The notes below the pieces were generated by a model. It saw nothing but the letters and a program-made list of their open reading frames with translations, did not search any database and was not told the DNA's origin. Of a stretch of 64,000 nt of DNA, positions 15,487 through 52,294 are shown piece by piece (the stretch's first letter is position 1; each line of letters opens with the position of its first letter). The translations under genes and the position numbers were made by a program. Source of the stretch: Gemmatimonadota bacterium (GTDB lineage Bacteria > Gemmatimonadota > Gemmatimonadetes > Gemmatimonadales > GWC2-71-9); assembly GCA_041500125.1 (NCBI GenBank), contig JBGQLP010000004.1, forward strand, positions 9,332 through 73,331. Direction: 5' to 3'.

Positions 15487-16196
15487 CCCAGCAGCCGAAA
15501 GCCGTGGTTCTTCTGAGTGGAGGGATGGACTCGGCCACCACGGCGGCCATTGCCCTGAGCCGCAGTTTCGACGTGCATGCCCTGACCTTCCAGTACGGCC
15601 AGCGCCACGCAGCCGAGCTGGAGGCGGCGCGCCGGGTCGCGAGCCACCTGGGAATTCGCCGGCACATCGTGTTGGATATCGACCTCCGCCCTTTCGGAGG
15701 ATCCGCGCTCACCGGCGAGCTGGAGGTACCCAAGGACACGCCGATGGAGCAGATCGGACAGCGGATCCCGGCCACCTACGTCCCGGCCCGGAATACCATC
15801 TTCCTGTCGTTTGCCCTGGGCTGGGCCGAAGTGCTCGGCGCCTCCGACATCTTTATCGGGGCGAACGCGATGGACTACAGCGGCTACCCTGACTGCCGGC
15901 TGGAATACATTCAGGCGTTTCAGCGTATGGCGGACCTGGCCACGCGCGCCGGGGTGGAAGAGGGGCGGCGGCTTACCATCCACACCCCCCTCATCGAGCT
16001 GTCGAAGCGAGAGATCGTGGAGCGCGGGCTGGCGCTGGGCATCGATTACGCGATCACCCTCACCTGCTACGATCCCGCGCCCGACGGCGCCGCGTGCGGC
16101 CGCTGCGAGGCCTGCCTGATCCGGCTCAAAGGGTTCCGGGAGGCGGGCCTGGAAGATCCCGCTCCGTATCAGACGGTGAGCGGGGAAGCAATATGA
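15483..16196 (+). CDS. queC: 7-cyano-7-deazaguanine synthase
   Basis: PP-loop [12 protein letters not shown] and C-terminal zinc cysteines [14 protein letters not shown] overlap with the upstream gene. Confidence 0.95.
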
Positions 16197-16828
16197 CTTA
16201 TGCGGTGAAGGAGATCTTCTATACCCTCCAGGGAGAGGGCGCCAACACCGGACGCGCGGCGGTGTTCTGCCGCTTTGCCGGTTGCAACCTGTGGACCGGC
16301 CGGGAAGAGGATCGCGCGGAGGCAACCTGTCAGTTCTGCGACACTGACTTCGTGGGCACCGACGGTCCGGGCGGGGGCAAGTTCGCCTCGGCGGAAGCGC
16401 TGGCCACGGCCGTTGCCGCAGCCTGGCCCGACACCAATCCGGCGCGACGCTTTGTGGTCTGCACCGGCGGGGAGCCGCTCCTCCAGCTCGATGCCCTGCT
16501 CATCAGTGCACTCCACGCCGAGGGGTTCGAGGTGGCGGTGGAAACCAACGGGACGTTGCCGCCGCTCGACGATATCGATTGGCTCTGTGTGAGCCCCAAG
16601 GCCGCGGCCCCGTTGGTCCTTCGGGCGGGCGACGAGCTCAAGCTGGTGTTCCCGCAGCAAGGGGTAGATCCCGCGCAATTCGAGCAGCTCGGGTTCGAGC
16701 ACTTCTTCCTTCAGCCGATGGATGGCCCTGAGCTGGAGGCCAACACCACTTCGGCGCTCCAGTACTGCCTGGCGCATCCGCGCTGGCGGCTCAGCCTGCA
16801 GACGCATAAGCTTCTCGGGATTCCGTAG
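16193..16828 (+). CDS. queE: 7-carboxy-7-deazaguanine synthase (radical SAM)
   Basis: ORF 16094..16828 trimmed to ATG 16193 (ATGA overlap with the queC stop). [31 protein letters not shown] followed by C-X14-C-X2-C cluster spacing. Confidence 0.9.
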
Positions 16829-16926
16829 GCGGGGCAGACGGGCAGCGGGGCAGTTCGCCCTGTTGAGCGCTGTCTTTGTGTGCGCTATTGCCGCCCCGCC
16901 GCCCCGCTGCCTCCTCTGCCCCGCTG
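16826..16926. repeat. Family B GGGGCAG-arm palindromic element, copy 1
   Basis: Starts on the queE stop: TAGGCGGGGCAGACGGGCAGCGGGGCAG. Core contains CTGTCTTTGTGTGCGC. C-rich arm CCGCCCCGCCGCCCCGCTGCCTCCTCTGCCCCGCTG ends 3 nt before the next start codon. Confidence 0.65.
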
Positions 16927-16929
16927 AGA

Positions 16930-17547
16930 ATGAACGGCTACTCCGACCGCATCAATCACGCGTTCGCCTTTGCCGCGAAATATCACGGTGCCGTTGCTCC
17001 AGCCGGAGCCGGCATGGATTACCTGGCGCACCCGGCCAACGTCGCCATCATCCTGTCCCGGTACGACTGCGACCAGATCACGATCGTCGCGGGGATCCTG
17101 CACCACGTCTTGGAGGACGCCGTCCCTGCCCAGCGGGCGGTCCTGGAACGCAAGATCGCGAACAAGTTCGGGCCGGTGGTCCTGGCGGTGGCCAAGGATG
17201 CGCTCGAGCCCAGGTTCGACCCCCGAGGTAGCGAGCGCGCGTGGCAGGCTCGGAAGCAGGAATACCTGACCCAGCTCTCCATTGCAGAGCCCCGAGCGCT
17301 GGACATCTGCGTGGCCGACGAGATCCATGCCTGCGGATCCACCATGACGGCCCTGCGCCGTCTGGGAGTCGAGTACCTCCGGGCCGTGTCCCGGGCCGGC
17401 TCGGAGCAGACCATCTGGTGGTACCGCTCGATGCTGGAAATTCTGGCGGCGCGCTCGGACTGGCCCCAGCGGGAAATGATCTCGGAATTGAGACTGATGA
17501 GCGCAGACCTGGTGCGCAGCCTGCGGCAACGAGAGGTGGATCTGTGA
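16930..17547 (+). CDS. HD-domain protein (RelA/SpoT-type hydrolase-like), variant HH motif
   Basis: ORF 16876..17547 trimmed to ATG 16930. Motifs AAKYHG, YLAHP and GILHHVLED, where the family normally has LHDVxED. Confidence 0.7.
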   Translation: MNGYSDRINHAFAFAAKYHGAVAPAGAGMDYLAHPANVAIILSRYDCDQITIVAGILHHVLEDAVPAQRAVLERKIANKFGPVVLAVAKDALEPRFDPRGSERAWQARKQEYLTQLSIAEPRALDICVADEIHACGSTMTALRRLGVEYLRAVSRAGSEQTIWWYRSMLEILAARSDWPQREMISELRLMSADLVRSLRQREVDL

Positions 17548-23295: not shown

Positions 23296-23363
23296 GGCGC
23301 ACCTCCTCGTGCGCCTGGTCTAAAACCAAACGGGCCGCTCTCAACGAGCGGCCCATTTGGTTT
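23296..23363. terminator. Two hairpins after cspA, the second a bidirectional-type terminator
   Basis: GCGCAC-ctcctc-GTGCGC, then AAAACCAAACGGGCCGCTC-tcaac-GAGCGGCCCATTTGGTTT (A-run before, T-run after). Confidence 0.6.
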
Positions 23364-26929: not shown

Positions 26930-27258
26930 GGACGCGGGGTCCGGCGGGGAGCCATGAGGAGAAAGTCGGGCTCATCCCCATTGGTCAGCTCCACCTTCTT
27001 GAGCTGGTCCACCCGCTCCAGTCCGGACTGAATCTGGCGGGCAATGCCGGCGAGATCTTCCGACGACAGCCGCGACCCGTACTGAGCCCGAATCACCTCG
27101 GTCAGAGACTTGGCGAGCGCACCGGGGTCTGCTCTGACTGCTTCGGCTCCGCCGGTCCAGAGAGGCAGGCGGATGGACTCCGGTGGCGAGCCGATCAGAG
27201 GAGCAAGCGCCGCCGCAGCGAGCGATTCGGCGAAGGCGCGGCGGGAGATATCGCTCAT
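26926..27258 (-). CDS. Small protein with twin-arginine signal and GatC-like C-terminus
   Basis: 110 aa. MSDISRRAFAESLAAAALAPLIG (SRRxF plus h-region). C-terminal LSSEDLAGIARQIQSGLERVDQLKKVELTNGDEPDF resembles GatC/AtzG-type amidase partner subunits. Start and stop codons overlap both neighbouring genes. Confidence 0.6.
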   Translation of the reverse strand: MSDISRRAFAESLAAAALAPLIGSPPESIRLPLWTGGAEAVRADPGALAKSLTEVIRAQYGSRLSSEDLAGIARQIQSGLERVDQLKKVELTNGDEPDFLLMAPRRTPRP

Positions 27259-29198
27259 GAAATGGTCTCGCCCTGCCCCGCCGACCCGGCGCGGCCTTGC
27301 CGATGGTAGAGGTACGCCAGCAGCAGAAAGACCAGACCGAGAATGAAGACGGAGCCCACCCGATAGAGCGCGTCGAGCGACGAAAGGTCGAAGACGAGGA
27401 CCTTCACCACAGCGAGTCCGGCCACCCCGAGTCCGGCAACCCGGGCCGGCTTGAGCTCACGGCGGAAGCCCACCACGACGAGCGCGGCCGCGAACACCAG
27501 CCACCAGGCGCTCACCGCCAGACCCGCGGAAAGGCTGGCGGTCTGGGCCGAGAGGGACCGCAGCACGAAGTAGCGCTGGATCTCGCCGGTGACGCCGAAG
27601 AGCACCATCGCACCGGCCACCACCCACAGGATGGCCTGCACCACGGGGCCAGGACCGGATTCCGAGGTCACCTTCCAGAGTTTTCCAGCCAACGCGACGG
27701 TCACCGCTGCCGCGCCCCAGAGCGCCAGCGCCCAGGATCCCACGAAGGCGGGATCGGCGGGCGTCCGCTGCGCGACCGCGCCGGTGAAGAGCTGGTCGAG
27801 GGCGGCCCACAGCGTGGCGACCGCGTACCAGCGGCCATCCTCTCGATTGAGCCGGTGATCGAGCGCCGCCCAGAGCACGGCGAGCGCCAGCAGCGCCCAC
27901 ACCCGTTCGATGCCGTCCCAGTGCCGCCACACGGCAATGCCCAGCGCGGCCGCCGCGACGACCGCGAAGATCGGGCGGGGCCGCTGGTATCCCGCAATCA
28001 GGTACGGCACGGCCACGATCAGCGAAACCATGCCCTCATGCCCGTCGAACCATGGCGGCGCCAGGCCATGCACCGCCCATCCGAGCAGAAATGGCGTCAA
28101 GAAAAAGTAGACCGCCTCACCCAGGGACCAAGTCGGCACACTGGAATTCGGCAGTCGGAAGATCGGCAGGGTCAAATCGGAGCGCAGCGCGAACCACCAG
28201 ACCGGCGCGGCCAGCACGATCCCGCCGAGCAGGACGGCCCAGGGGCTTCCGAGCTGGTGACTAGCGGCGCTCACGAAAGTCCAGCCACCGGCAAACGACA
28301 GGAACCTGGTCTCCGGCCAGCGCTCCCGGAGGCCGACGTGGATGCCGGCACTCCCCCCGAGCACGCCGTACAGCAGAACCCCCCAGGCGGAGCCACGGTC
28401 CGCCGCGCCGACGTAGGCCACGCCGAAGAAGCTCAGCGCGACGATGAACATGGCCAGGCGCCAGCGGCGGCGTGCGGCCACGAAGCCGAGCCCAGCGGCC
28501 ATGCACGCGAGGTAGAGAAGAAGCAGATCGGCGTCGGCCTGGTTCCGGCCCAGCAGCAGCGGAGCGAAGAACGCGCCCAGGGCTGCCGTGGTCCCCAGCG
28601 CCTCGACGTCGATGGCATAGGCGATCATTGCCAGGGCGACGGAGACCAACGCCAATCCGATGATGCCGGTGGTGGGCGGCAGGACCCCGTACAAGCGCGC
28701 CGCGGCCCAGACACTCAGATAGATGATGGCGGCGCCGCAGCCGATCAGGGCCGCGCCATAAGTGCGGTAGCGCGGATGGAGCCGCCAGCCGACCGCTCCC
28801 ACGATGAAGCCGGAGATGGCTCCGCCGATACAGCGCATCAGGGGTGAGATCCAGCCCCGATCGAACGACAGCCGGAGGAGATAGCCGGCGGCGAGGATGA
28901 GGGCGATCACGCCGACAGCCAGGAGGACGCGCTGGCCGATCCATTGTTCGGAGGAGAGAAGCGGGGCCGCGGGGCGGAGGGGCGGCGGGGCAGATGTGGG
29001 CGGAGCGACGGAACGGGGTGGCGGGGCAGGTGACGACGGAATTGGCGTTGCTGTTTGCGTCACCGCTCCCCGGCTTTCCTGCGGCGCCGCATGCTGCCCC
29101 ACCACCCCGCTGCCCCGCTGCCCCACCAGCGCCCCCACCAATTCCTCGAGCTGGGTCACGCGCCTCTCAAGGCGCTCGATCCGGGCGTCCTCGCTCAT
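27255..29198 (-). CDS. DUF2339-like polytopic membrane protein
   Basis: 647 aa. N-terminal coiled coil (RIERLERRVTQLEELV), Pro-rich linker, then roughly 18 hydrophobic segments. This architecture is typical of DUF2339. Confidence 0.75.
   Translation of the reverse strand: MSEDARIERLERRVTQLEELVGALVGQRGSGVVGQHAAPQESRGAVTQTATPIPSSPAPPPRSVAPPTSAPPPLRPAAPLLSSEQWIGQRVLLAVGVIALILAAGYLLRLSFDRGWISPLMRCIGGAISGFIVGAVGWRLHPRYRTYGAALIGCGAAIIYLSVWAAARLYGVLPPTTGIIGLALVSVALAMIAYAIDVEALGTTAALGAFFAPLLLGRNQADADLLLLYLACMAAGLGFVAARRRWRLAMFIVALSFFGVAYVGAADRGSAWGVLLYGVLGGSAGIHVGLRERWPETRFLSFAGGWTFVSAASHQLGSPWAVLLGGIVLAAPVWWFALRSDLTLPIFRLPNSSVPTWSLGEAVYFFLTPFLLGWAVHGLAPPWFDGHEGMVSLIVAVPYLIAGYQRPRPIFAVVAAAALGIAVWRHWDGIERVWALLALAVLWAALDHRLNREDGRWYAVATLWAALDQLFTGAVAQRTPADPAFVGSWALALWGAAAVTVALAGKLWKVTSESGPGPVVQAILWVVAGAMVLFGVTGEIQRYFVLRSLSAQTASLSAGLAVSAWWLVFAAALVVVGFRRELKPARVAGLGVAGLAVVKVLVFDLSSLDALYRVGSVFILGLVFLLLAYLYHRQGRAGSAGQGETIS
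28971..29126. repeat. Family B-like GGGGCAG-arm element embedded in-frame in the DUF2339 gene
   Basis: Plus-strand G-rich arm 28971-29030 (GCGGGGCCGCGGGGCGGAGGGGCGGCGGGGCAG...GGTGGCGGGGCAGG). Core with CTGTTTGCGTCACC. C-rich arm 29093-29126 (CTGCCCCACCACCCCGCTGCCCCGCTGCCCCACC). Same polarity as the intergenic copies. Confidence 0.45.
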
Positions 29199-52146: not shown

Positions 52147-52149
<3 letters not shown>

Positions 52150-52284
52150 GCGGGGCAGCGGGGCGGCGGGGCAGGTTCCTTCTGAGCCAAGCACCTGTCA
52201 TCCCGAGCTTAGCGGGACCACTTCGAGGCTCTCACTGTCTTGGTGTGCACCGTCTACCGCCCCGCTGCCCCGCTGCCCACCTGC
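52147..52284. repeat. Family B GGGGCAG-arm palindromic element, copy 2
   Basis: Starts on the ettA stop: TAGGCGGGGCAGCGGGGCGGCGGGGCAGG. About 80-nt core containing CTGTCTTGGTGTGCAC. C-rich arm CCGCCCCGCTGCCCCGCTGCCCACCTGC. Confidence 0.65.
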
Positions 52285-52294
52285 GCCGCTATTA

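Follow-up and report, generated by a model that had tools for sequence, protein, structure and literature searches.

What is a 101-nt hairpin built of tandem repeats doing inside a bacterial operon whose genes otherwise overlap? The question arises at positions 16826-16926 of the window (the whole stretch of DNA analysed, 64,000 nt), which belongs to contig C4 of a 3.48-Mb, 65% G+C, 155-contig genome, here called G000. The genes run in the order queC, queE, HD-domain gene, 5'-nucleotidase gene. queC lies directly upstream of queE with a 4-nt overlap, and the stop codon of the HD gene overlaps the 5'-nucleotidase gene; the element is therefore the sole real gap in the gene run. In many bacterial genomes, heptamers and octamers are the units of the most strongly over-represented long simple repeats, and we know of no accepted origin or function for these repeats. 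The history of one such element can be followed at the queE-HD locus across 98 species: a single old acquisition in a tightly coupled operon, without complete loss in 31 species, where an invariant geometry keeps stop and start together and the arms are conserved beyond synonymous sites as the core drifts. The reading that we favour, with a probability of roughly 60%, is that the insert is a gene-less hairpin of inverted octamer arrays from a class whose larger members carry PF05635 genes, and that it loops itself out and is tolerated in the manner of REP elements.

Anatomy of the element

The upstream gene, queE (7-carboxy-7-deazaguanine synthase, a radical SAM enzyme; 16193-16828, plus strand), was identified from its ORF, its translation and a Pfam Radical_SAM match. 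Its TAG stop codon (16826-16828) forms the base of the stem, and the MFE fold has the final base of this stop paired. The G-rich 5' arm (16829-16853, plus strand) consists of three tandem octamers with a period of 8, GCGGGGCA GACGGGCA GCGGGGCA, and a final G. The core, which forms the loop, is 37 nt long (16854-16890, plus strand) and holds an inner 5-bp hairpin between AGCGC (16866-16870) and GCGCT (16882-16886). The C-rich 3' arm (16891-16926, plus strand) is complementary to the G-rich arm; it is made up of about four degenerate octamers, CCGCCCCG CCGCCCCG CTGCCTCCT CTGCCCCG, followed by CTG, and corresponds to the period-8 array that TRF reports at C4:26221-26255. The element thus fills the space between the queE stop and an AGA spacer, which with the ATG start codon occupies 16927-16932 (plus strand, ATG at 16930). 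The gene for a RelA/SpoT-type HD protein (HD_4; 16930-17547, plus strand) follows directly after the spacer. The initial annotation had described complementary G-rich and C-rich arms around a core, a small hairpin within that core, three GGG(G) runs in the G-rich arm and a position between two co-directional genes, and here coordinates and sequences agree to the base. The arms are also, as it had stated, free of stop codons apart from the flanking TAG, and a TGA is present in the 3' flank (CTGAGAATG).

RNA from the plus strand is predicted to fold into one long interrupted stem of 34 pairs with an energy of -66.1 kcal/mol (z = -3.4). RNA from the minus strand likewise gives one long interrupted stem (-68.9 kcal/mol, z = -4.8), and none of 200 dinucleotide shuffles reached the fold energy of the element. 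No Rfam match at the gathering score was found anywhere in the window.

The queE-HD junction across relatives

Evidence for the history of the insert came from a comparison of 98 orthologous queE-HD junctions, placed on a tree of QueE and HD proteins; the relatives are soil MAGs named "Gemmatimonadales bacterium". In one clade of 31 species (support 99/95), every species carries an array hairpin in the gap, which measures 37-176 nt. In the other species the gap is mostly 2-23 nt, for example TGA GA ATG or TAA CCGGCCCGTC ATG. The 3' flank of many occupied alleles, TGAGAATG, is identical to the whole junction (TGA GA ATG) of some empty alleles, among them L016 and L124. Across 51 distinct occupied alleles, the predicted stem has its start at a median position of -1 nt relative to the end of the stop codon, and at its other end a median of 4 nt separates it from the ATG. 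In the predicted folds the whole insert is looped out, so that the queE stop and the HD start lie side by side, about 5 nt apart, much as they do where the element is absent. The same juxtaposition of stop and start would also arise trivially if complementary arrays fill the entire gap.

Sister species within the occupied clade differ in both the unit (GCGGGGCA, GCGGGGAA or the 9-mer CGGGAAGGA) and the core. The distribution of allele types does not match the gene tree, a pattern that points to the exchange of intergenic alleles among species. A CGGGAAGGA-type allele with the tail TTAATTCTCTCGAG.CCATCGACGCC is found in L004, L007 and L101, which belong to three separate subclades and whose sisters carry GCGGGGCA or GCGGGGAA alleles. 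The presence of this allele in three subclades suggests recombinational exchange between species.

Nine species share the allele with the 37-nt core, and their alignment allows the rate of change in arms and core to be set against that at synonymous sites. In relatives with 47-55% identity at 4-fold sites, the G-rich arm is 84-100% identical and the C-rich arm 74-86%, compared with 34-62% for the core, which evolves at about the neutral rate. The most extreme case is L088, where all 25 positions of the G-rich arm, including the imperfect GAC unit, are identical and 4-fold sites are 47% identical. Among orthologous alleles the C-rich arm is 74-94% identical. The arms lie far above synonymous-site identity and the core does not; hence selection or concerted evolution keeps the arms constant. 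Their conservation could be due to concerted evolution or to allele exchange instead of selection acting on the queE-HD locus.

Turnover is also evident between close relatives. A composite flank query identified 38 orthologous element sites in the closest relative, G008, with flanks 90-99% identical. About 20 of the 38 sites keep the same family with a changed number of units. At about 11 sites both the unit family and the core are different (for example, GAGCTGG replaced by GGCTATG, and AGGCGGGT by GCGGGGCA), and about 4 sites are empty or cut down to a one-unit hairpin. Other Gemmatimonadales samples have other units at very different densities, from 17 pairs per 400 kb in G025 to no array pairs in 180 kb of G033.

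A genome-wide class of inverted arrays

The queE-HD element is one member of a large class. TRF at a score of at least 36 reports 126 arrays of period 7 and 149 of period 8, compared with 2 of period 5 and 5 of period 10. Neighbouring arrays form 84 strict inverted pairs versus 2 direct pairs, and a more sensitive search for partners raises the number of array hairpins in the genome to about 110, all with arms of tandem 7-9-nt units. There are at least 12 unit families, including GTGAGAG, GGGCGGAC, AGGCGGGT, GCGGGGCA, GCGGGGAA, GGCTATT, GGGAGCT, GGGAAGGAC and CACAGAGGA. Polarity is nearly invariant: as judged by G-C skew, the G-rich arm lies 5' of the C-rich arm in 217 of 219 partnered arrays (p about 6e-62). 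The two arms almost always have the unit in common, with 83 same or similar pairs in purine-then-pyrimidine order; the exceptions among neighbouring arrays are one same-unit pair in the reverse order and two with unrelated units. The queE-HD copy has the unit GCGGGGCR, one of these families; read from either strand, its G-rich arm comes first, and its short core is unconstrained. With 101 nt in total and a core of 37 nt, the copy is typical of elements with a median length of 121 nt and a median core of 54 nt.

Cores of different copies are unrelated, with the exception of the 9-mer CACAGAGGA family. That family (CACAGAGGA/CCTCTGTGT) is unlike the others in having homologous cores of about 130 nt with the ends TTCACCACAGAGG...CCTCTGTGGTGAA; copies lie at C102:4857-5463 of G000 and on seven other contigs (among them C117, C21, C28, C47, C57 and C85). 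One 9-mer CACAGAGGA copy adjoins the sole PDDEXK_3 (GxxExxY, PF13366) gene of the genome. A core motif next to the C-rich arm, GGTGTGC, was considered and set aside as too weak, being present in 7 of 78 cores with about 2 expected from the whole-genome background. At C57:1155-1875 of G000, the housekeeping gene hslV has a G-rich arm of the GTGAGAG family upstream and a C-rich arm downstream, 654 nt apart; these are either two half elements or one arm pair that encloses a cellular gene.

Gene calls by our own crude caller, made on MAGs, underlie the statistics on gaps. By these calls, co-directional, convergent and divergent gaps hold elements in the same proportions as the background. The distance from the upstream stop codon is about 0 nt, and the next start follows after a median of about 25 nt. 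A stretch of that length has no room for a promoter, so that transcription must pass through most co-directional copies.

The initial annotation had placed the queE-HD copy in a repeat family (family B) with GGGGCAG arms and had proposed a search for related copies. The search returned two more copies in the window and about 11-14 GCGGGGCR-armed pairs genome-wide; the exact word TAGGCGGGGCAG occurs 3 times. The shared arm type and variable core bear out the idea of a family; any likeness among the cores of family-B copies is not significant, and no core homology was found among them, the queE-HD core being unique in the genome. On its own, the word GGGGCAG shows no enrichment in the window, with 28 copies where 24 are expected. 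The non-random feature is the tandem, inverted arrangement rather than the single word GGGGCAG.

A second intergenic family-B copy lies at 52147-52290 (plus strand). It begins with TAG GCGGGGCAG and, like the queE-HD copy, starts with TAGGCGGGGCAG; its 84-nt core contains half of an unrelated palindromic repeat. Several array hairpins with differing arm units hold this dispersed repeat, GTCATTCCGAGCGTAGCGAGGAATC ... GATTCCTCGCTACGCTCGGAATGAC, within their cores. It is found at 52175-52256 in the window and elsewhere in G000 at C22:32737-32893, C98:4900-5030, C120, C142, C36 and C20, and solitary copies occur too. A family-B-like copy at 28971-29127 (plus strand) falls within a 647-aa minus-strand ORF (27255-29198), where it is in frame in a membrane protein and encodes a Pro/Ala-rich linker at about codons 25-76; the G008 counterpart of this stretch is of equal length (216 nt) and strongly diverged. 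An outer inverted repeat, GGGCGGGTGCCCTC...GAGGGCACCCGCCC, surrounds a family-B element and recurs (G000 C15:17834-18031, G008 L070 and G000 C13:21168-21190), which hints at nesting of different hairpin repeats.

Association with PF05635 genes

A link between the arrays and a protein family came from the genes that lie between arms. The family, PF05635, is that of the 23S rRNA intervening-sequence protein (S23p/Avd-like), which is encoded by a small gene. In G000, four of the five PF05635 matches are bracketed by inverted arrays with the G-first polarity, the units being GGCTGTT, GGCGGGTA, CGGACAGG and GGACGGAGA. Most of 15 PF05635 matches examined in five relatives are likewise bracketed by inverted arrays, and genus-wide about 24 of 30 PF05635 genes are bracketed by inverted arrays of 7-9-mers with that polarity. 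The cores of these cassettes measure 417-533 nt. Family-B arms bracket a PF05635 gene in G016 (AGCGGGGC x4.6 and CTGCCCCG x9.2), and GCGGGGCA arms do so in G017, with short ones in G008; no gene-bearing family-B copy was found in the G000 assembly. One orthologous cassette has GGCGGGTA arms in G000 and GCGGGGCA arms in relatives, around proteins that are 75-79% identical, and therefore unit and protein are not strictly coupled.

The 37-nt core of the queE-HD element holds no PF05635 ORF. Only from the shared architecture do we infer that gene-less copies such as this one may derive from PF05635 cassettes. Many short-read MAG contigs stop within a few bases of a PF05635 gene (G006:C421, G011:C91/C286/C240, G021:C299, G023:C85, G007:C141 and others). 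This is expected if the flanking arrays break assemblies, so that cassette counts from MAGs are probably underestimates. A paper connecting inverted heptamer arrays (PMC4692102) with S23p rRNA intervening sequences (PMC4990558) was not found in the searchable literature.

Mobility and processing

Transposition of the MITE type was considered as a source of the copies and rejected: flanking direct repeats of at least 3 nt occur in 10 of 83 elements, with 9.25 expected from shuffled pairing. A TGAG repeat at the queE-HD locus is suggestive of a target-site duplication, but the feature is not general. A REPIN/RAYT system fared no better, with PF01797 (Y1 transposase) present once in G000 and absent from the array-rich G008 and G025. 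The spacer conserved among REPIN copies also has no counterpart here, the cores being unrelated and the queE-HD core unique.

An RNase III processing site, which would split the operon mRNA by an IVS-like excision, was likewise considered. The RNase III domain PF14622 was not found in G000, the one genome searched for it; PF00636 is absent from G000, G008, G004, G025, G032 and G033, several of which are 99-100% complete; and a tblastn search of G000 with E. coli Rnc found no homolog. The lineage thus seems to be without RNase III, and for this reason an RNase III site is rejected. To our knowledge, Deinococcus is another group without RNase III. No intervening sequence was found in the 23S genes of three relatives, which are 2949-2980 nt long.

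Alternative explanations

The initial annotation had suggested that the element could act as an attenuator or insulator rather than a simple convergent terminator. The negative part of this suggestion holds, given the lack of a U-tract, the 3 nt to the next start and the element-free relatives with a junction of 2-10 nt. An operon insulator is unlikely. In this model, transcription would end or be strongly attenuated at the hairpin downstream of queE, and a promoter within the core, or at another place, would drive the HD and 5'-nucleotidase genes. The stem is very stable (-66.1 kcal/mol) and the core contains a weak TTGAGC-17-TATTGC pattern. A G-rich 5' side and a C-rich 3' side are typical of terminator stems too, and the polarity of the element matches this. 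However, a consensus scan found no intrinsic (Rho-independent) terminator in the element on either strand, the stem being followed by AGAAUGAACGG and not by a U-tract, and canonical U-tract terminators do occur in the genome (for example, at 23323-23363). The scan also gave no promoter match in the core; the core evolves neutrally, and its candidate hexamers are not kept across the nine aligned species. The stem ends 3 nt from the ATG, and genome-wide about 70% of co-directional elements lie less than 50 nt from the next gene, which argues further against insulation.

A different view is that the arms are purely a by-product of slippage, a local SSR that grew on both sides of a small hairpin, functionless and unrelated to other loci. 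Long SSRs with 7-nt units are known to be prone to slippage (Mrazek 2007, cited in PMC4679880). Unit number does vary between close relatives, as in the extra unit of G008, and one-unit "seed" versions exist at some G008 sites, such as the ortholog of C17:50813. Yet a few units recur at dozens of loci and across species, both arms always have the unit in common, with a polarity of 217:2, and the imperfect GAC variant is kept in place across species with saturated synonymous sites. Templating of one arm by the other through quasi-palindrome correction was also rejected, since the two arms of an element resemble each other no more than they resemble arms from elsewhere in their family. These data make slippage as the whole explanation quite unlikely.

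Alternatively, the arrays, as DNA or RNA, could be a putative phased series of sites bound by a trans-acting protein, such as the four-helix-bundle PF05635 protein, that maintains or spreads the arms; binding, and not the hairpin itself, would then be the active principle. The tight bracketing of PF05635 genes by arrays, the conservation of arms far above neutral with cores left free, and the unit common to both arms are all consistent with this proposal. We nevertheless consider it very unlikely, since an orthologous PF05635 protein (75-79% identical) is accompanied by different arm units in different species, the largest families (GTGAGAG and GCGGGGCA) are without a cognate gene-bearing copy in the G000 assembly, and in six genomes the number of PF05635 copies does not follow the density of arrays. 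Finally, a G-quadruplex formed by the G-rich arm in DNA or RNA could act as a switch for the flanking genes, as related GGGAATC heptamer arrays of at least four units fold into G4 structures in vitro (PMC4692102). The structure prediction proposed in the initial annotation spoke against a G-quadruplex: the arm has three G3+ runs only, and neither strand contains a G4 motif. Any G4 would also compete with a duplex of about -66 kcal/mol, and many sister families, such as GGCTATT, GTGAGAG and AGTCTAG, are unable to form one. Such a switch is extremely improbable.

A proposed self-looping insert in a coupled operon

The favoured reading, a gene-less array hairpin that folds itself out of the operon message, accommodates both the fixed geometry and the drifting core. 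In occupied and empty alleles alike, no Shine-Dalgarno sequence lies within usable reach of the HD start, and so the HD gene probably depends on coupling to termination at queE. The stem would loop the insert out, keeping the queE stop and the HD start side by side. As the insert would loop itself out, stop and start would remain adjacent and the operon could be read through, and the insert may be tolerated for this reason. A ribosome reaching the queE stop would melt the outer stem and free the ATG.

In the RNA, the element may behave as an intra-operonic stem-loop of the REP/BIME kind, a barrier to ribosomes at the queE stop and to 3' exonucleases. The net effect would be to slow the approach to the stop, protect the upstream message and cause some attenuation, shifting the ratio of queCE to HD expression. 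This REP-like effect is proposed with low confidence, and the element is probably not an efficient terminator.

A broader and more tentative proposal, which we consider less likely than not, is that the PF05635 and PDDEXK_3 cassettes and the gene-less hairpins make up one widespread class of insertion element not yet described in the literature. Under this proposal, a trans-acting process would keep the arms constant as cores drift, and elements would survive in operons, in coding linkers and in rRNA by means of stems that loop the inserts out, the queE-HD stem being a case in which stop-start coupling would be preserved. The G-first polarity and the PF05635-bracketing arms frame the questions of how arms are maintained, whether PF05635 proteins bind them, and how long stems fare in a lineage without RNase III.

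Comparison with known systems

REP, BIME and REPIN sequences of Proteobacteria are dispersed intergenic hairpins of about 100 nt, often found in operons beside stop codons. The array hairpins described here are like them in hairpin size, dispersal, proximity to stop codons and the presence of several families per genome, and the likely RNA effects of REP/BIME elements (mRNA stabilisation, attenuation and ribosome stalling at nearby stops) are those proposed above for the queE-HD copy. The arms here are tandem repeats, whereas REP has a fixed palindrome of 20-40 nt, and cores are unconserved among copies. Unlike REPINs, the arrays show no correlation with a RAYT (Y1 transposase) gene.

The PF05635 cassettes have a parallel in rRNA. 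The helix-45 23S IVS of Coxiella burnetii consists of 28-bp terminal inverted repeats and a loop of about 430 nt with a PF05635 (S23p) gene (PMC4990558). Both are long stems around a gene, with cores of 417-533 nt in the cassettes described here. The 23S IVS folds out of its host RNA and is hence tolerated (PMC4990558), and the same may be true of the queE-HD element, which has the long terminal-inverted-repeat stem of an IVS-like cassette (34 pairs). The queE-HD copy differs from an IVS in having no ORF, in lying between protein genes and not in rRNA, and in having arms of tandem octamers. RNase III excises IVSs, and it was not found in this lineage.

Long SSRs with units of 5-11 nt, together with the cyanobacterial STRR repeats, form the wider class with which the arrays can be compared. 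Rehm et al. (2015; PMC4692102) described intergenic heptameric SSRs, GGGAATC in Xanthomonas and GGGGAYT in Nostoc, some of them in "convergent" pairs. Like the queE-HD element, these have short, G-rich tandem units and lie in intergenic positions near the upstream ORF; their arrays often come in pairs whose G-array is first on the plus and then on the minus strand, matching the polarity seen here, and turnover between related species is fast in both cases. Set against arrays of this type, the queE-HD element has the tandem units, the convergent pairing and the dispersed, unstable copies; it cannot form a G4, having no motif, unlike the GGGAATC arrays. The unit is 8 nt here, compared with 7 nt in Xanthomonas and Nostoc. 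This genome has at least 12 unit families, compared with one in Xanthomonas, and its arrays are as a rule paired. PMC4692102 does not describe a link to PF05635 genes or conserved arms, both of which are seen here.
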